Positions 3,100 to 54,553 of a stretch of DNA of 64,000 nt are shown one piece after another (the stretch's first letter is position 1; every line of letters begins with the position of its first letter). The position numbers were made by a program, and so were the translations under genes. The notes under the pieces were generated by a model. That model was not told the origin of the DNA. It saw nothing but the letters and a program-made list of their open reading frames with translations, and did not search any database. This stretch comes from Haliotis rufescens (taxonomy: Eukaryota), in the NCBI RefSeq assembly GCF_023055435.1, contig NW_025964372.1:27528001-27592000 (forward strand), read 5' to 3'.

Positions 3100-5028
3100 T
3101 TAGTTCATGCAGCAACAATATCGCAACACTGTACTGTTTAGTAGTGGGCATCCAGGCCAGGGTACAGGCGTCGTATGGATGACGTTGTTGGAGGCGCCGA
3201 AGTCTGATCCCCCGTCATCAGTGGTGCAGGTCGCTAAGCCGCTCCTGGAGTCGGTACTCGCGACCTGGATCACATCAGATCCCATCAACTCGAATTCGGG
3301 TGTTTCCCGGGTGTGCTTTCCCCAAGTGAGCATTTTGGATAGCCAAAATTTTCTATATCTTAAAACCATTATCAATATTATTATGACTAGTAACATGATA
3401 CCCCCAACTAACCACTTTTTCCAGTTAATTTTCTTATCCCAACTAATTTCAGTGTTTACACTATGTAATTCATCAATTAAATGACTCATGGATACCGTAT
3501 CTATATTCTGGAGGTGGCTTGGAACTTTCGATATCGTCACATTTCTTAATTTTTCCTTAAAGGGTTTCCATAACAGCATATCTAAAACGTTTGGCATATG
3601 AGGTAGCTGAGCCCAGATCTCATTTAATTCAAACCTGCTTTCATTACGATAAAATGGTAGTAATGTCAAATGATTGTTTGAAGCTGTACAAGAGACGTTT
3701 ACTCGTAACATACCTATTGGTGGGTAAATAGTTATTATCTGTGGATATACTTTTTAACATACTATAGTAAAGTCTAGTTGTTCAGCGGTCGCAATGACCC
3801 ATTGGCCTTCCCAAATATTATCTGCCCTAGGCAGTATCATGTGCATGGTAACTTCCCGTTTACACAAGCTCTTGACTTTATCTAAATCTTTCATGAAGAG
3901 CGCGATCATGAACATCTGACTAAGATTTAGGGGATAAGTCGGGCTGCTTATCATGCGTGATTCTAATTTATATGTGGCAACCATGCCAGCTACTTTAGTA
4001 AATTCATGCGTTTTATCTGAGAGGAGAGGTAGTGGTAAATTATGAATTTTATAAATTTCGTATTGCCCATTATAATCTAATAGTGGAAGTGATATTATTA
4101 TCAAAATCTTTTCCTCATAAACTAAGGTCGAGCATGTTAATGTTCGATAATAATTCCATAATTCCTTTTTCTGGATCTTTTGCCAGTTTATAGCCACTTG
4201 GTAAATGAATATTTATTTCACGTAATAATACTAATAATTCACTTGGAGTGACAGTGCCTGGCGACAAGTGTCCGAGTGATAGAGCATTAAATTGTAATTG
4301 GAGGTGATTGATATAAGACATCAATGTTTGTATTGTTTGTCTTACGTCTTCAATTACTAAATCTATCTTGAGATAATTGTTAGTAGCCCATTCAAGTTTA
4401 TCTATACGCCCCGCAAGAATTCGGGAGATGTTTGCTACATTTACCTCTACTTCCTTGAGATTATCAATAACTGCATTAATTGTTTGTCGGTTCTTCTGAA
4501 CTTGAATCCTTGTTACATTCAAAATAGTGAGTTCTTCATGAACTACATGCGATATGGTTTCTTGGTTCTTAGCAATTTTGTTGATATTGTTTTTGATTGA
4601 ATTTAAATCAGACTCGGATACTGTTCCAAATAGATAACTTAAAGCATCGCCAATAAATGGGATTAATGATCGCTTTGGTCTTATCAACTTCCTGTATTCT
4701 AGAAAACTAACTTCTAGCGAACTTAGTGTATTATTTAGACCCGTAATTTCCTTGTCTAACCTGTAGAAGGTTCCTTCTACTTTGTTAACATCAGTGCTGC
4801 TATGGTAGCGACTGATCAGTCTACGCAAAACTAATGCAACTTCTTCGATATCCTTCCTACATCTTTGAATATAGTCAATATAAGGTTTCATGTCTATTAC
4901 TAGTGCTACAAGCCATTTTGAACAAGTTGTAGAAATATCATTGACCTTTTGAAAAAACACGTTTTCAGAAACTAATAGACTAATAAACCACCAAAACACA
5001 ACACTGTTAATATGGTAAACACACCCAT
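3100..5028 (-). pseudogene. env: env, F-type (baculovirus F/errantivirus-like) class I fusion glycoprotein, disrupted, copy 1
   Basis: ATG at 5028 with hydrophobic leader MGVFTILTVLCF; furin site RPKR followed by fusion peptide SLIPFIGDALSYLFG; heptad-rich region; TM WLVGGIMLLVIIILIMVL; frameshifts near 5000 and 4170; in-frame TAA at 3754-3756. Confidence 0.88.
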
Positions 5029-8000
5029 TTCCTGCAAATATACAGAATAAAAAAACTATATAAAACTGTGACTAACCAAGACTACATACAACTATAATCA
5101 TCAGTTGTACTCAAACATGAATACCATATATGCTCAATACCATATATACAAAACAAACAAGATATGCATGCAGTGCCCGATTATACTACGAAGCCTTATA
5201 GTAACCCGGCTACTGCCTCAAACAACTTCTTAACCTTATCATCAGGGGTTAATTGACGTGTCTCTTTAACTTCATTTACGGATACATTATCATTATCTGA
5301 TGATTCACTTGATCCGTTGTCCTCCGTCGAATTGTCAATAGAGTCACGTCGCCTAGCACTCAAGCGTTTGGCAAGTTGGGCTAACGGAACGTCATTCTCT
5401 GAGTCTGAGTCTGAACGTTCCTGTCTATACCGCTTTGTGATCCTTGACATGGGATCCTTTGATCCTTGTACCTCCTCGTCCGAGGTTGATTCTGAGGATA
5501 GTGATATAACATTATGTTGTTTTCTTCGAGGTCTACCTTCTGTGTCCTTGGGAATTTCCCAATCATCTAGATTAGCAATCCTAAGATGTTCTGCATGAGC
5601 TCGTGTAGTTGATCCATCAAGCTGATTTCGTATGATGTAAGTTACTGGCGATGTTTGTTCAATAACCCTGTAGAACGGCTTCCACCTGTTCTGTAGCTTA
5701 CTCTTCCTTTGATGAAATCTATAGTAGACAGGGTCGCCAACCTTGATTTTGTTTACTGCTCCTGTCGGCATATCGGGCCTGTCTTTCTTTGCTTTCTTCA
5801 TGTTCTTGTGTACTAGAACGAATGCCTTGTGCTGCTGTTGCAGTGCTGTTTTATGTTCTTCGTCACCTGCATACTTACGTCTCGGTCGTAGCAGGTTGTC
5901 AACAGGAAGAACGACGTCACGATTGTACAACAAGAAGTATGGCGAAAACTTGGATGATTCACAGATGTAGAAACGAATTGCAGCCAAGGTTTGATTTAGG
6001 TATAAGTCCCATGTTGTTACGTTGTCATTCAGCTTTTTCGCAAGGACATCATGTAATGTACGATGAAATCGCTCAACTCTTGCATTGGACTGGGGGTGAT
6101 AAAATGACGTCCTGACGTGGTTGATCCCTAATGCTGACAATGTTTCACTGACAACCTTGTTAATATTCTCTGTCCCGTTATCTGTGACAATCTGTAGTGG
6201 ACAGCCAAACCTCGGGAATATCTCCTCTAGTATCAGATGGGCAACTGTCTCTGCTGATTTATCAGGTACTGCATACGCCTCAGGCCAACCGCTGAAGTGG
6301 TCAACGAAGCCGATGATATATTTATTCCCAGATAATGTTGTCGGATAGGGTCCTGAGAGATCCATACTTACCTTCGCAAATGGGTAGGGCGGAATCTCAG
6401 TTTCCTGCAAAGCTGGTTTCTGGGCCTTCATGGTTCTAGATTGACAAGTGATACATTTGCCGATACACTCAGTTATCTCCCTGTAGAGGTTGGGCCAATA
6501 ATATTTCAGTTTTATTGCCTCAAATGTCTTGTCAATCCCCATGTATCCGTTTGCATCATGATATTGCGTGACCACGATCTGTTTGAACTTTTCGGGTACA
6601 TATAACCTGGGCGATGGATCATCCTCAATTGCACTGACATAGTACAATAGATCATTTATGACTAAGTACCTTTTTAAGTGTGACTTGTCACCGTGACCTT
6701 TTTCCAGTTGTTCTTTGATGCTCGTGATGTTTTCATCCCTATCCTGCTCTTTCTGCATGTCTATATCCATTTCCATTCTGCGTGGCAATGAAGATGCCTC
6801 GGGAATTGGCAAATCGCAGCTAGCAAAATTCTTAGGGTTGAATTTGGTGGGGTTCAATGCCTCAATCCTCAGACTGTTGTCGGGTCGATCAATCTCAATG
6901 TCTTCCTCATTAGGCCCGCAGCCGTTATCTGTGTTTGATTTGCCCCGAGATAGTAGATCTGCACAAGTGTTGTTCTTTCCTGCCATATACCCGATCTTAC
7001 AGGTATAGCCCGCGATTCCCAGTGCCCATAGTTTTTCTACCTGTTCACCCTCACTTTCATGTGTCTGAACCAGACACGCCCCTATACAGCTGTTACTGGC
7101 GTCCGTGTACAGAGTGTATGGCCTATTCGGGTCGGGATAGGTCAGTAATGGTACAACCGTCAGACTGTCTTTCAAGAAATCAAAAGACTTTTGACATTCT
7201 TCAGACCACGAGAATCTCGCAAATCTCTTGGTAAGTTTTACCATGGGTTCAGCAATATTTGAGAAATTGGGGATAAATCGGCGGTAATAACTGCACATCC
7301 CTATGAACCCTCGTACTTCTTTTACTGACCTTGGGGCTTCCATTGACCTAATGGCCTCTACCTTTTGGTTGTCAGGTTTTATTCCATCTTGATTGATGAC
7401 AAAACCTAAGTACTGAGTTTCCTCCTTGGCAAAGCTACATTTTGACAACTTGAGTTTTAGTGAATGTTGGCGGAGTCGTTCATAAACTGTCTCGATATGA
7501 AGTAAATGTTGTTCTTCCGACTTTGAGAATATCAAAATATCGTCTAGGTAGGCTATTGCAAATGCATCGAGACCCTGTAAAACTTCATTCATAAGTTCCA
7601 TAAAAACTGCTGGAGCATTACAAAGTCCAAAAGGCATCACGTTAAATTCAAAAAGACCTCTATGACAAGCAAAAGCAGTTTTTTCTTTATCTTCATCATC
7701 CATTTGAGGGGTAAAGTCGTTGAAATAGGACGGCTAATTTTGTTCAAAACCCTAAAGTCTACACAAAAACGCTTCGATCCCTATTTTTTGTCAACGTCGA
7801 CAATGGGGAAACTCCATGGTGACCTAGAACGTCGAATGATCTGAGCATCTAACATGTCATCGATCGCCTTATCTACAACTTTGCGTTTGTTAAGAGGAGT
7901 TCGATATGGCTTCATCTTGATCGGAACATTGTCACCTGTGTCTATCTTCATACGTACAGTTTCTGTCTGCCCTAAGTCTAAATCACTCTTTGCAAATAAA

Positions 8001-8777
8001 CCCTTGTTTTGAGACACTAAATCAGTTAACCTTGATTTCAAATTAACTGGAGCGTCAATGTCAACATTGAGATCACAGGATATGTCCCTATCAGCTAATT
8101 CATCGCTACGCTCCTTAGCGTCCCTAGTACGCAACCTCTCTTCAACCTAAATGTACGGTTGGTATTGTTGACTAGCAGTAATGGGACATTCCTATGTTTG
8201 TCAATCTTAACAATAGAATTTCCTATGAGTAGACCTGGTTCATTTGCTGGGTAACTCTTTTCAATTGTGGAGATTTCATACGTGCTTGATGTTTCAAAAT
8301 ATGGTCTATTTTTAATCTTTGCCCTTAAGATATTTCTACACTGAGGTTTTACTGTTGTATCCGCTGCTAACCTGACTAGAGAAGATATATGGATATCTTC
8401 CTCTAGCGGTACATAAGTTTTCCCTACTGTTAAGCTACCCAAGTCGAAATACACCCTAACACCTGCCTGTGTCAACCAATCGTGTCCTAATATAAGATTT
8501 CTGTTCATGTTTCCTACAACATAGAAGGTATAGGAAAGATTGACGCCTCTCATCCTAAAGTGAACTTTCACATTCCCATCTACCTGTAACGAATTCCCAT
8601 TAACCCCTTGTAAAGCGACTTTCTTTTTGTTTAACGGAAATCTATCTTTTATTGAATCGTACACCCTACGATGCATTATCGACACTTCAGCGCCAGAATC
8701 AATTAAACACCTCCATTGTTTTTTTCCTATTTTGATACTACACGAATTTGGTCTCCCCACTTCATTTATTGAATGTA

Positions 8778-8923
8778 CTGGGCCATTTGTCGCCTTCTCT
8801 CCCTCATCGGCTTCTGGGCCATTTGTCGCCTTCTCTCCCTCATCGGCTTCTGGGCCATTTGTCGCCTTCTCTCCCTCATCGGCTTCTGGGCCATTTGTCG
8901 CCTTCTCTCCCTCATCGGCTTCT
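8778..8923. repeat. 36-bp x4 perfect tandem repeat at the start of pol (EADEGEKATNGP); also 30107-30252 and 51454-51599
   Basis: ctgggccatttgtcgccttctctccctcatcggctt repeated four times. Confidence 0.95.
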
Positions 8924-8949
8924 TTATGAGGAAGAGAATTTAGTTTCCC
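8903..8949 (-). promoter_or_regulatory. gag-pol -1 ribosomal frameshift signal (G GGA AAC slippery heptamer plus stem-loop)
   Basis: Minus strand CAG GGA AAC TAA ends gag; pol is open in the -1 frame; 12-13 bp stem UCUCUUCCUCAU/AUGAGGGAGAGA begins 4-5 nt downstream. Confidence 0.8.
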
Positions 8950-9899
8950 TGGTTTTGTTTTCTTGGTGGTCTGTTTGGACAATTTCGTTTAAAGTGGCCC
9001 GATTGATTGCATAGCCAATATACCCTGATCTCTTGCTCTCTCTCATTAACCGCATAAACACGTTTTGATCTGCAATCCTAAGCCCGGTGACCTGGCTTCC
9101 CGCATGAGAAACAATTACGACGCTGTCTAGCATGATCAACGTCCATAGGCACTTCTCGCCTCCCGCTATTCGAATCGTGCCCTCTACTATTAAAATCATG
9201 CCCTCGGCTACTCGGTTTTCCCAACCTGAGTTCGAATCTAGCCCTAATGTTTTGTTCACGCGTGGCCGAGGCCACTGCTTCTTTGAGGGATGTGGGGTTT
9301 TCCCTCATAAGTTTTTTTCTGCATGTACTCATGACTCAAGCCATCTCTGAAAAAACCTATCAATTGTCTTTGGATGGCGGGATTATCTTCACCGTCCTGC
9401 CCTAATCCTTCATAAGCCTCTTCGGCCAAGTTTAGTAGTCTTTCAGCATAAATCTGAACACCCTCACTATGTTTTTGTTTGACCGCCCTTAAAAACATAA
9501 ATGCGTGTTGTGGGTCGCTTATTTCAGCAAACCTGCTCGTTAGCTCTGCCCTTAACTCCTTCCATGTTTTGGCAGGATTATCATCCATATAGCATTGCAC
9601 GAAGTCGCTTACAGCGCCATCACAACTCTGAAAAGCAATTAGCTTTTTACTGGCGTCTTGATTTGCGCCAGTTAGCAATGCATACTTTTCTACAGATTTG
9701 ATCCATTTTTTTAAATCTTTCGGGTTCCCCACAAATGTTTTATAGCTTGATTCACGCCCTGTGCGCTTAGCGTTGTATTTACAGCAGCTAGCCTCCCGTT
9801 TATTTCATTTCCCTGTGCCCCTAATGTTGAAGTTACTGTTGATAACTGCCCCGTTATTTCTCCCGCTAACCCTTGTAAGAATTGTGCATATTCTGCCAT
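8940..9899 (-). pseudogene. gag: gag with two CCHC zinc knuckles, disrupted, copy 1
   Basis: ATG at 9899 (MAEYAQFLQG); capsid-like region WKELRAELTSRF; CFSCGKPGHRA*DC and (Y)WLCNQSGHFKRNC; two frameshifts and one premature stop. Confidence 0.9.
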
Positions 9900-10014: not shown

Positions 10015-10032
10015 ATCCTGGTCTCGGCACCA
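10015..10032 (-). promoter_or_regulatory. Primer binding site, tRNA-His-like (also 31344-31361 and 52692-52709)
   Basis: Minus-strand TGGTGCCGAGACCAGGAT; from memory 17/18 match to the complement of an invertebrate tRNA-His 3' end; tRNA-Phe is the next candidate. Confidence 0.7.
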
Positions 10033-10055
10033 GTTTACGTAACCCCGCCCCTTCT

Positions 10056-10545
10056 TGTAACACAACACAAGAAGGCGGTTTGAGGATTACGTAGTTTTAA
10101 TCACAATGGCATATGTACAAGTCAAAGGAAGTGTGGCGTCCTTCCTTCCTCCCTCTAGATACTCGCCTGTACTTTAGGGTGCTGAGACCAAGTCTGCCGG
10201 TATTTGGAAGTCGCCCGGTATATATAGTAATGATGGAATGCGAAGCATTTTGTTTTGCACAGGTACTAAAATTTGGTGTGGTCAACTTGAGATTAAATTG
10301 TCCATCAAGTGGTGTCCATGACGAGGCACTTAAAAATGTTCCCCTTAAGGTGACATGAAACCACCACTCACTGGTCCACTTGATATGTACTTGACATATC
10401 CATGGGGTCTTCACGGGGTCAGTCGTATTTGGCAAACACTGATAGTGTTACATCAGTCGTATCTGGCAAACACTGATAGTGTTATGATATGTACTTGACA
10501 TATCCACGGTGTCAGTCGTATCTGGCAAACACTGATAGTGTTACA
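10056..10545 (-). repeat. 5' LTR (490 bp), copy 1
   Basis: Direct repeat of 2255-2676 with extra U3 duplications; followed by CACA TSD. Confidence 0.95.
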
Positions 10546-11824
10546 CACAACAATAATTACGTTGAAATATCAAACAACCTGCAGCTGTTTCCACTAAATC
10601 GAGCGACTACATTACTTAATGTGTGCAACATCTTACAAGGCAATAAGTGAACAGAGCTCACAATAATACTCCCACATTGAACATATTTCTAAGTTCGTGA
10701 ACCGTAAAAACGAAGAGGATTGATATAATCCTATGGCGATTTTGCATTTAGATTGGTTGTGTAGAACAGCGTGGTCCCACAGTCATTGAATTGATTAAAA
10801 AGATAAAGGATATTTGGATAATGTTGCCAAATAAGATGTTGATCTCATCGGCGCCATAATGGGTGAGGTTATTTCATCAAACGTCTGAATTTCCTGGTCA
10901 AAAGGCGTCGAAACTGTTTTTTTATAAATTAAACTGTGTTTCATACTTATGTTGAAGTACACAATGGCTGAATATACAGTGCCAGGTAAATAAATATGTA
11001 CAAAGGACATAAATATAAAACACCCCTCTATGATTAATTAGCAGGGGTACAGATAAGTTGATGTTTTGAGACATTTTTGTAATGTTATTTAAATTTTTCT
11101 GAATATATAATTTATTTTTAATTTGAAAGAATATAGGTAATAAAAGCGAAAAAACACTTTACATTTTAGTAAGACATGTCCATTGTAAGATTACGACTCT
11201 ATCGTGAGGATGTGAAGAATCTCCAAAAAATATCCTAATACCATTTTTCTGTAGAAAAAATAGTGCTCTATTCTTCTTCACAAATACGGCTTATAAAACG
11301 ATTAAACAAACATTCAAGAAATATTCATTCGGTTATGATAAATACCCTGAGTATCCTTCCTCAAAGCAAAGTTAGCGCATATATAGTTACGTCCTTTGAT
11401 CCATGTAATCTTTTAAATTTTAGTGCATATTGTCTGCAATGGGGAAAGTAAAATCAGATATTCTCATGACACCAAACCACCCTAGTGCCTGTCTCTTCTA
11501 AGGGAGATTTATTTGCTTGTTGCTTATCGCTGCTCTCAACACTGTTCCTTTTGTAATGGAGGATTGGTATACAGCCATATAGTACTTTGTATCTGAAGTC
11601 CGTTCAGCATCATTCGAACAATGTGAACTTTATTATCAAATTGTATCACATATGTCATGTGACTGACACCAATCAGAATGAACACCTGTTTAATTAAACT
11701 TAATTAAACGTAGTTAATAGCTTAATTTCTGCACCGTAAATCATATCAAACTGTCAGGTAAATAGAAATTACACATGGCCCACTGTGGTTAATTCTGCCT
11801 CGTCGAGATGATTAAAATCTTTGG

Positions 11825-31228: not shown

Positions 31229-33205
31229 TTTGCTCACTTAAGTACTTGCAAAAACCCAAAGAATCACCTTTTTGCGAGTCCCGGGACCAATTCCCTCGAT
31301 CCTAGTCGTTTCCTGGGATCCCTCTCCTTCTCTCCTTAAGGTGATCCTGGTCTCGGCACCAGTTTACGTAACCCCGCCCCTTCTTGTAACACAACACAAG
31401 AAGGCGGTTTGAGGATTACGTAGTTTTAATCACAATGGCATATGTACAAGTCAAAGGAAGTGTGGCGTCCTTCCTTCCTCCCTCTAGATACTCGCCTGTA
31501 CTTTAGGGTGCTGAGACCAAGTCTGCCGGTATTTGGAAGTCGCCCGGTATATATAGTAATGATGGAATGCGAAGCATTTTGTTTTGCACAGGTACTAAAA
31601 TTTGGTGTGGTCAACTTGAGATTAAATTGTCCATCAAGTGGTGTCCATGACGAGGCACTTAAAAATGTTCCCCTTAAGGTGACATGAAACCACCACTCAC
31701 TGGTCCACTTGATATGTACTTGACATATCCATGGGGTCTTCACGGGGTCAGTCGTATTTGGCAAACACTGATAGTGTTACATCAGTCGTATCTGGCAAAC
31801 ACTGATAGTGTTATGATATGTACTTGACATATCCACGGTGTCAGTCGTATCTGGCAAACACTGATAGTGTTACACACAACAATAATTACGTTGAAATATC
31901 AAACAACCTGCAGCTGTTTCCACTAAATCGAGCGACTACATTACTTAATGTGTGCAACATCTTACAAGGCAATAAGTGAACAGAGCTCACAATAATACTC
32001 CCACATTGAACATATTTCTAAGTTCGTGAACCGTAAAAACGAAGAGGATTGATATAATCCTATGACGATTTTGCATTTAGATTGGTTGTGTAGAACAGCG
32101 TGGTCCCACAGTCATTGAATTGATTAAAAAGATAAAGGATATTTGGATAATGTTGCCAAATAAGATGTTGATCTCATCGGCGCCATAATGGGTGAGGTTA
32201 TTTCATCAAACGTCTGAATTTCCTGGTCAAAAGGCGTCGAAACTGTTTTTTTATAAATTAAACTGTGTTTCATACTTATGTTGAAGTACACAATGGCTGA
32301 ATATACAGTGCCAGGTAAATAAATATGTACAAAGGACATAAATATAAAACACCCCTCTATGATTAATTAGCAGGGGTACAGATAAGTTGATGTTTTGAGA
32401 CATTTTTGTAATGTTATTTAAATTTTTCTGAATATATAATTTATTTTTAATTTGAAAGAATATAGGTAATAAAAGCGAAAAAACACTTTACATTTTAGTA
32501 AGACATGTCCATTGTAAGATTACGACTCTATCGTGAGGATGTGAAGAATCTCCAAAAAATATCCTAATACCATTTTTCTGTAGAAAAAATAGTGCTCTAT
32601 TCTTCTTCACAAATACGGCTTATAAAACGATTAAACAAACATTCAAGAAATATTCATTCGGTTATGATAAATACCCTGAGTATCCTTCCTCAAAGCAAAG
32701 TTAGCGCATATATAGTTACGTCCTTTGATCCATGTAATCTTTTAAATTTTAGTGCATATTGTCTGCAATGGGGAAAGTAAAATCAGATATTCTCATGACA
32801 CCAAACCACCCTAGTGCCTGTCTCTTCTAAGGGAGATTTATTTGCTTGTTGCTTATCGCTGCTCTCAACACTGTTCCTTTTGTAATGGAGGATTGGTATA
32901 CAGCCATATAGTACTTTGTATCTGAAGTCCGTTCAGCATCATTCGAACAATGTGAACTTTATTATCAAATTGTATCACATATGTCATGTGACTGACACCA
33001 ATCAGAATGAACACCTGTTTAATTAAACTTAATTAAACGTAGTTAATAGCTTAATTTCTGCACCGTAAATCATATCAAACTGTCAGGTAAATAGAAATTA
33101 CACATGGCCCACTGTGGTTAATTCTGCCTCGTCGAGATGATTAAAATCTTTGGTATAAATATAGAGACACCAACCCTATCTGACAAATCATCCCGATTGT
33201 CTACA

Positions 33206-52575: not shown

Positions 52576-54553
52576 TTTGCTCACTTAAGTACTTGCAAAA
52601 ACCCAAAGAATCACCTTTTTGCGAGTCCCGGGACCAATTCCCTCGATCCTAGTCGTTTCCTTTGGATCCCTCTCCTTCTCTCCTTAAGGTGATCCTGGTC
52701 TCGGCACCAGTTTACGTAACCCCGCCCCTTCTTGTAACACAACACAAGAAGGCGGTTTGAGGATTACGTAGTTTTAATCACAATGGCATATGTACAAGTC
52801 AAAGGAAGTGTGGCGTCCTTCCTTCCTCCCTCTAGATACTCGCCTGTACTTTAGGGTGCTGAGACCAAGTCTGCCGGTATTTGGAAGTCGCCCGGTATAT
52901 ATAGTAATGATGGAATGCGAAGCATTTTGTTTTGCACAGGTACTAAAATTTGGTGTGGTCAACTTGAGATTAAATTGTCCATCAAGTGGTGTCCATGACG
53001 AGGCACTTAAAAATGTTCCCCTTAAGGTGACATGAAACCACCACTCACTGGTCCACTTGATATGTACTTGACATATCCATGGGGTCTTCACGGGGTCAGT
53101 CGTATTTGGCAAACACTGATAGTGTTACATCAGTCGTATCTGGCAAACACTGATAGTGTTATGATATGTACTTGACATATCCACGGTGTCAGTCGTATCT
53201 GGCAAACACTGATAGTGTTACACACAACAATAATTACGTTGAAATATCAAACAACCTGCATCTGTTTCCACTAAATCGAGCGACTACATTACTTAATGTG
53301 TGCAACATCTTACAAGGCAATAAGTGAACAGAGCTCACAATAATACTCCCACATTGAACATATTTCTAAGTTCGTGAACCGTAAAAACGAAGAGGATTGA
53401 TATAATCCTATGACGATTTTGCATTTAGATTGGTTGTGTAGAACAGCGTGGTCCCACAGTCATTGAATTGATTAAAAAGATAAAGGATATTTGGATAATG
53501 TTGCCAAATAAGATGTTGATCTCATCGGCGCCATAATGGGTGAGGTTATTTCATCAAACGTCTGAATTTCCTGGTCAAAAGGCGTCGAAACTGTTTTTTT
53601 ATAAATTAAACTGTGTTTCATACTTATGTTGAAGTACACAATGGCTGAATATACAGTGCCAGGTAAATAAATATGTACAAAGGACATAAATATAAAACAC
53701 CCCTCTATGATTAATTAGCAGGGGTACAGATAAGTTGATGTTTTGAGACATTTTTGTAATGTTATTTAAATTTTTCTGAATATATAATTTATTTTTAATT
53801 TGAAAGAATATAGGTAATAAAAGCGAAAAAACACTTTACATTTTAGTAAGACATGTCCATTGTAAGATTACGACTCTATCGTGAGGATGTGAAGAATCTC
53901 CAAAAAATATCCTAATACCATTTTTCTGTAGAAAAAATAGTGCTCTATTCTTCTTCACAAATACGGCTTATAAAACGATTAAACAAACATTCAAGAAATA
54001 TTCATTCGGTTATGATAAATACCCTGAGTATCCTTCCTCAAAGCAAAGTTAGCGCATATATAGTTACGTCCTTTGATCCATGTAATCTTTTAAATTTGAG
54101 TGCATATTGTCTGCAATGGGGAAAGTAAAATCAGATATTCTCATGACACCAAACCACCCTAGTGCCTGTCTCTTCTAAGGGAGATTTATTTGCTTGTTGC
54201 TTATCGCTGCTCTCAACACTGTTCCTTTTGTAATGGAGGATTGGTATACAGCCATATAGTACTTTGTATCTGAAGTCCGTTCAGCATCATTCGAACAATG
54301 TGAACTTTATTATCAAATTGTATCACATATGTCATGTGACTGACACCAATCAGAATGAACACCTGTTTAATTAAACTTAATTAAACGTAGTTAATAGCTT
54401 AATTTCTGCACCGTAAATCATATCAAACTGTCAGGTAAATAGAAATTACACATGGCCCACTGTGGTTAATTCTGCCTCGTCGAGATGATTAAAATCTTTG
54501 GTATAAATATAGAGACACCAACCCTATCTGACAAATCATCCCGATTGTCTACA

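Follow-up and report, generated by a model that had tools for sequence, protein, structure and literature searches.

As a rule, the primer binding site (PBS) of LTR elements abuts the LTR, and integrase trims about 2 nt. How, then, does an element whose PBS lies well outside its LTR prime the synthesis of its DNA and keep the additional nucleotides out of its insertions? Such an element is present in the window examined here, a 64,000-nt stretch of the Haliotis rufescens genome, where it lies on the minus strand; all coordinates given below without further label are window positions. Its 5′ LTR (10056–10545, TGTAACA...TGTTACA) and 3′ LTR (2255–2676) are identical through ...TGTTACA and diverge one base further, and a TGTG target site duplication (TSD) flanks the element, with the upstream copy at 10546–10549 and the downstream copy at 2251–2254. 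The polypurine tract (PPT), AGAAAGGGGCGGA, directly abuts the 3′ LTR (2677–2689). Between the LTR end and the 18-nt PBS (10015–10032) there is a 23-nt spacer (10033–10055), so the preliminary description was exact in placing the PBS 23 nt beyond the TSD-defined LTR end.

The coding regions follow the order gag, protease, RT, RNase H, integrase and then an F-type env, which is the order of Ty3/gypsy elements (Metaviridae), and the TG...CA LTRs, the TSD and the PPT abutting the 3′ LTR are hallmarks of that group. The gag region (9256–9899; Retrotrans_gag) has a frame that is broken near 9750. The protease frame (8095–8988) and the pol frame (5196–7733), which contains part of RT, a shortened RNase H and integrase, were identified from their ORFs and by domain search, and env (3100–5071) extends across three frames; the window copy is broken in all three of gag, pol and env. 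For env, the Pfam Gypsy match had an E value of 1.3e-5 (below cut-off), the top Atlas matches were Baculo_F/Gypsy clusters at 0.95–0.96, and the translation includes a basic cleavage-like site and a C-terminal hydrophobic stretch; comparison of env with PDB sequences returned no significant match. Judged by these sequence features, the element is an env-bearing Ty3/gypsy element and an F-type errantivirus in the operational sense of PMC13524379. The protease frame includes a 36-bp in-frame repeat present in four copies (8742–8959) upstream of the protease domain. The start of U3 consists of a repeat of approximately 59 bp (10389–10545; L011); LTRs of the family differ in its copy number, the lowest being 1 and the highest at least 23. 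A segment of approximately 21.3 kb that includes the whole element is found in three tandem copies in the window (1–64000) that share 96–100% identity, with the PBS and spacer of copies 2 and 3 at 31344–31384 and 52692–52732, respectively. As the three near-identical elements are due to this triplication, they were counted as one insertion.

A DNA search for the family represented by this element, here named family 1, returned 21 matches; 10 of them include the internal region, which the other 11, all LTR ends, lack. All 10 copies with an internal region, three of which are from the triplication in the window, have the 23-nt spacer, and this contradicts the possibility that the spacer is an insertion private to one copy. 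None of the other 11 LTR ends runs into the spacer; 10 stop exactly at the CA and the eleventh match stops short. Three independent insertions have perfect TSDs (TGTG, TGTA and AATG), and two have a TSD with one mismatch.

Searches with gag and integrase recovered three relatives in H. rufescens, families 2–4, and env similarity was detected in all four families. The spacer is 23–25 nt in family 2 (TSDs CACT and ACTT), where one copy has lost the PBS region, 16 nt in family 3 (TSD GTGA/GAGA, one mismatch) and 27–30 nt in family 4 (TSD GAAT). Across the four families, LTR ends are backed by a 3′ LTR and 4-bp TSDs, with no mismatch in 6 independent insertions and a single mismatch in 3 others. 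In integrase (IN) and RT trees (25 rows each, midpoint root; short matches led to the omission of one family-2 row from IN and one metagenome row from RT), families 1–4 form a single clade (IN 97/99; RT 87/93) that does not include the env-less His-primed elements, in which LTR and PBS are 2–4 nt apart. A genome-wide scan for exact tRNA-His PBS sites, which misses sites with C at the anchor position, produced 52 hits: 17 in families 1–4, 2 in an env remnant, approximately 31 with short gaps and 2 that were unclear. The short-gap hits have TTACA-like ends at 2–5 nt, and one of these elements was verified by its TSD. Because env-less His-primed gypsy elements of the same genome have gaps of only 2–5 nt, the use of tRNA-His does not itself demand a displaced PBS. 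In tRNA-primed elements the PBS is expected to lie no more than a few nt from the LTR; the distance is 23 nt here and 16–30 nt across the clade, and the displaced PBS is fixed in family 1 and clade-wide.

In an env-only remnant (L135; G000:C557) found as two inverted copies, 12 nt separate the His PBS from an end that reads TGTTGCA, and as no second LTR was found to confirm that end, the 12-nt gap is a possible one only. A first search with a spacer pattern gave 16 hits compared with 15 for the control, which is chance level apart from the family copies, and a looser version returned pure noise.

The preliminary description had suggested that priming in this family might be non-standard, and this part of its proposal is not supported. 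The 3′ end of the host tRNA-His(GTG) gene, followed by the CCA that is added post-transcriptionally, is an exact complement of the PBS (18/18 nt), specifically in the form of isodecoder a. The host genes form a tandem array (168 pattern matches) of two isodecoders, distinguished by two linked positions that pair with the PBS, and both linked PBS alleles are present within families 1, 2 and 4. The 52 PBS alleles comprise 33 that match isodecoder a, 13 that match isodecoder b, 5 mosaics and 1 other, a pattern that would be expected from re-templating off the primer tRNA. As the PBS alleles track the two host isodecoders, tRNA-His appears to prime at the PBS and plus-strand DNA to cross the spacer. 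The isodecoders alternate along the array (L038, 1450–1521 and 1831–1902; G000:C57). In one of them the acceptor stem contains a U-U mismatch and the T-stem a compensated change; this isodecoder seems to be the commoner primer because it matches 33 of the 52 His PBS sites.

The reading that we prefer, and to which we assign a probability of roughly 0.55, is that tRNA-His primes at a PBS lying 23 nt outside the LTR (16–30 nt in the clade), that the cDNA consequently carries a tail, and that an integrase nick after the terminal CA removes it. The tRNA would anneal to the 18-nt PBS, as the perfect match and the isodecoder-tracking alleles argue. Under the standard model, minus-strand synthesis would begin beside the PBS and copy the spacer before reaching the LTR end. 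Plus-strand strong-stop DNA would then pass the spacer and copy the tRNA end, as suggested by the re-templated PBS alleles, and the finished right end would be made up of U5 plus the spacer. It had been claimed at the outset that priming at the displaced site leaves a long extension on the cDNA, and as an implication of the standard model this is upheld. As insertions end at the CA with a 4-bp TSD, the tail is removed, and end processing, rather than priming, is likely to be the non-standard step. We propose that integrase most likely makes its 3′ cleavage at the internal CA and that the long 5′ flap is left to host repair, and an internal nick and flap repair of this kind require no new chemistry. 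Lengthening of the ends of HIV-1 DNA reduces 3′ processing in vitro (PMC13332604), so the integrase step would need an unusually tolerant enzyme; that LTR elements can tolerate terminal extras is shown by Tf1 (PMC11042837). A search of the genome assembly for LTR-LTR junctions found none.

The spacer would likely have been retained to serve initiation at the level of RNA, as a module located beyond a very short U5. In the window, a sequence resembling a poly(A) signal, ATTAAA (10096–10101), is 40 nt upstream of the LTR end, and across families 1–3 the hexamer is 36–44 nt from the LTR end and followed by a GU-rich tract, which leaves U5 short of room; among seven short-spacer elements, the four in which a hexamer is present have it at 110–187 nt. 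The longer U5 of family 4 (85–101 nt) is at odds with this short-U5 rationale and counts against our preferred reading. The module is predicted to pair with parts of the primer tRNA that are freed on annealing, on the T-arm side in families 1 and 2 and at the 5′ end in family 4, and in family 1 the box concerned is predicted to be masked by a hairpin.

The main rival to the integrase nick is that the tail is made and then trimmed, or is never completed, before integrase acts, either because plus-strand synthesis stalls near the CA or because the end folds back as a cruciform that is cut by a host or RT-linked nuclease. We consider this unlikely, and much of the evidence concerns the hairpin between spacer and U5 that was noted in the preliminary description. 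As RNA, the segment 10093–10036 does fold significantly in family 1, at −29.8 kcal/mol with a z of −6.2 and none of 200 shuffles doing as well, and as DNA it is equally stable on both strands (−14.2 kcal/mol, z −4.7 and −5.0), which favours fold-back of both strands. The LTR end is within or next to a small loop in the minimum free energy folds of families 1–3. In addition, single-stranded PBS tails are kept on the cDNA of Tf1, so unfinished ends do exist (PMC11042837). However, z values of −3.7 to −5.9 in four of four family-1 copies contrast with −2.1 to +0.9 in 12 of 12 copies of families 2–4, where the hairpins are no stronger than those of shuffles. Compensatory pairs, the covariation that a conserved stem should display, were absent: with 11 copies of family 2, RNAalifold returned five weak pairs and no compensatory change, and across families 1–3 it returned no pairs at all. 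The exact ends at CA in 10 of the 11 non-5′ LTR ends also fit sequence-specific cutting by integrase.

The long hairpin was dropped as a conserved feature, being private to family 1 and without compensatory pairs, and two details of its original description need adjustment. The LTR terminus, which had been placed at the loop, is near it, but the terminal CA is on the 3′ side of the loop, 3–4 bp into the stem. The 5′ arm had been assigned to U5, and its outer part is probably R instead since ATTAAA is just 40 nt before the LTR end. The likeness of the spacer to the PPT, which had been reported as close, was borne out in family 1 (p=0.02, 2000 spacer shuffles) but not in four relatives (p=0.27–0.80), and PPT mimicry as a general mechanism was dropped. 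The PPT-like G-rich strand may simply be the complement of the tRNA T-stem and the partner of a pyrimidine-rich U5.

Alternatively, the spacer could be a neutral linker that a permissive integrase disregards, with the hairpin, the PPT likeness and the boxes complementary to the tRNA all incidental. This is improbable, though the spacers do vary widely in length and sequence between families (16–30 nt here, 8–21 nt in the rows of PMC13524379), lack any shared structure and have boxes that differ from family to family. Counting against it, spacer length is fixed within families, a GGG(G) run is found at an aligned position in families 1–3, and the family-1 hairpin has a z of about −6. The boxes themselves, complementary to the body of tRNA-His and present in the spacers of three of the four families, argue in the same direction; they are strong in one family and weak in family 1. 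The strongest is in family 4, where the spacer matches tRNA-His nt 3–15, a different part of the tRNA from that matched in families 1 and 2, with 12 nt exact in one copy (p=0.002); for two of three copies, 0 of 60 shuffles were as good with either control. In family 2, 8 of the 10 spacers scored have an exact 8–9-nt complement of nt 42–50 (p 0.002–0.01), and exact complements, including those of 9 nt, occur in both isodecoder forms. The family-1 box, CGGGGTT (10041–10047), is complementary over 7 nt to nt 45–51, in the variable loop and 5′ T-stem (p about 0.02); 4/60 and 13/60 shuffles were as good for one copy and 0/60 and 9/60 for another. In family 3 a box is absent or requires a bulge and is not significant (56/60 and 57/60 shuffles as good in one case, 1/60 and 37/60 in another). 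All of these p-values are per spacer and uncorrected, and the copies are related. Shuffled tRNA-His served as control because a search for other host tRNAs as a panel found only tRNA-like repeats. RNAcofold predicted additional pairing between spacer and tRNA in 0 of 12 complexes; this result, the weak box of family 1, the bulged or missing box of family 3 and the different target in family 4 also count against our preferred reading.

In two short-gap lineages, U5 itself contains a 10–11-nt complement of tRNA-His nt 23–35. Env-less His-primed gypsy families (loci L130, L131, L138–L141, L150 and L151, metagenome elements among them) have within U5 a box of 9–11 nt or longer that is complementary to the D-stem and anticodon arm of this tRNA. 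The simplest account would be that the initiation signals that flank the PBS sit outside the LTR in the clade of families 1–4.

A role chiefly in silencing the poly(A) site of the 5′ LTR is less probable still. The spacer is found behind the 5′ LTR only and could base-pair both to the cleavage region and to the GU-rich element; the close spacing of hexamer, GU-rich tract and LTR end in families 1–3 would suit this, as would the fact that the family-1 hairpin covers the hexamer region. Pairing with the GU tract was, however, no better than for spacer shuffles in family 1 (19/40 and 10/40 as good), family 3 and family 4, with only a modest excess in family 2 (1–15/40), and the tail would still need processing. 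As it was not above shuffles in most families, poly(A) occlusion was dropped.

Self-priming of the kind known from Tf1/sushi elements, with the RNA 5′ region (10192–10178) or the U5 arm as primer and tRNA-His unused, was dropped as very improbable: the segment at 10178–10192, which is complementary to 15 nt of the PBS with one mismatch and one G-U pair, does lie approximately 30 nt behind a TATA-like box (10219–10226) and its pairing with the PBS has an energy of −25.5 kcal/mol, lower than for 15 of 15 shuffles, but this complement in R is private to family 1 and missing from families 2–4, the PBS is an exact tRNA-His match with alleles that track the host isodecoders, self-priming at the PBS would produce the same tail, and the template would be lost if U5 were cut so as to allow priming at the LTR end. 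The segment fits isodecoder a better than b and could shield the PBS.

Insect errantiviruses are known for a 1-nt overlap of the PBS with the LTR. The errantivirus table of PMC13524379 (supplementary file 1) gives LTR and PBS coordinates, the LTR ends being BLAST self-matches rather than TSD-defined, and its insect rows are mostly −1, which is the known overlap and calibrates the subtraction used here to obtain gaps. We compared 15 His_GUG rows with 84 non-His rows from parts 1, 2, 17, 30 and 31 of the 34 parts of the table, the latter with no more than one mismatch; two further His_GUG rows of the 17 present were excluded for two mismatches (gaps 9 and 12). Gaps of at least 8 nt were found in 11 of the 15 His rows (8–21 nt) and 3 of the 84 others (Fisher p 3e-9), and in molluscs and annelids alone in 10/12 and 3/24, respectively (p 6e-5), the rows in both comparisons being related and not independent. 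The gaps in the remaining four His rows are 0–2 nt, and one long-gap His row is an HSV-type wasp element. These published long-gap His-primed elements may belong to the same clade as families 1–4, and displacement of the PBS is probably widespread among the His-primed errantiviruses of lophotrochozoans. In the main text of PMC13524379, term searches found no comment on the gap between LTR and PBS. Nor did the literature searched, the coverage of which left out most subscription journals, include a paper describing a displaced PBS; its mechanism is here inferred rather than demonstrated.

The elements described here resemble the F-type env-bearing 'ancient errantiviruses' of molluscs and annelids, which share the gag-pol-env organization, the tRNA-His PBS and, in the His rows, gaps of 8–21 nt (PMC13524379), and differ from them in having TSD-verified spacers of up to 30 nt. 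The PBS-flanking modules of retroviruses, namely PAS/anti-PAS of HIV-1, the U5 hairpin and T-stem pairing of HIV-2, and the U5-TψC pairing and U5-IR stem of RSV (PMC3185550, PMC3601003), likewise involve a hairpin immediately 5′ of the PBS and a short, stem-masked box for the freed 5′ strand of the T-stem, to which the box in the present elements is a candidate counterpart. The retroviral modules are within U5, which the PBS abuts (PMC13332604), whereas here the module would be located beyond the LTR, with the att site on one side and the PBS on the other. Ty1 and Ty3 have a bipartite PBS with extra boxes in the genome for T- and D-arm parts of the primer; these leave the cDNA end unlengthened (PMC5371799), while the box described here would be copied into the U5 end. 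As proposed for the elements studied here, Tf1 cDNA of Schizosaccharomyces pombe may extend past the LTR end, and about half of the molecules keep a single-stranded PBS (PMC11042837). However, Tf1 is self-primed and its tail is the PBS, single-stranded and optional; the tail proposed here would be obligatory, likely double-stranded and 16–30 nt long.

A broader proposal, which we offer tentatively and at slightly worse than even odds, is that a lineage of His-primed errantiviruses across molluscs and annelids has uncoupled the att site from the primer site, so that integrase cuts U5 out of an 8–30-nt flank, resembling a DDE transposase that nicks inside flanking DNA more than a retroviral integrase that trims two bases, and the linker has become a family-specific module that captures the tRNA. 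A clade that has transposed repeatedly with tails of 16–30 nt would be a natural system in which to study how deep inside a DNA end an intasome can cut, and it raises the question of whether the adjacency of PBS and LTR reflects integrase chemistry or mere history. In retroviral U5 the RNA signals for priming overlap with the DNA signal for integration; here the two would be separated. Annotation that requires an adjacent PBS will misplace the LTR ends of such elements or miss their primer.

A metagenome scan produced seven hits. Three are a His-primed gypsy element whose gap is 1 nt, two may have a gap of 11 nt but lack a second LTR by which the end could be confirmed, and two show no pol match. 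A search of viral contigs returned a single hit. Three 7.4-kb metagenome contigs (L150, L151 and L154) resemble circularly permuted gypsy elements with a single LTR, and in them 1 nt separates the His PBS from the end of the LTR.

Small RNAs that map to the LTR of the window element were found on both strands at 10162–10213 (50 reads in three runs), with none of the 50 mapping to the spacer. In one run, eight sense reads, which may represent few molecules, share 10192 as their start, and the bin depths point to an antisense partner with a 10-nt overlap, which would form a ping-pong-like pair.
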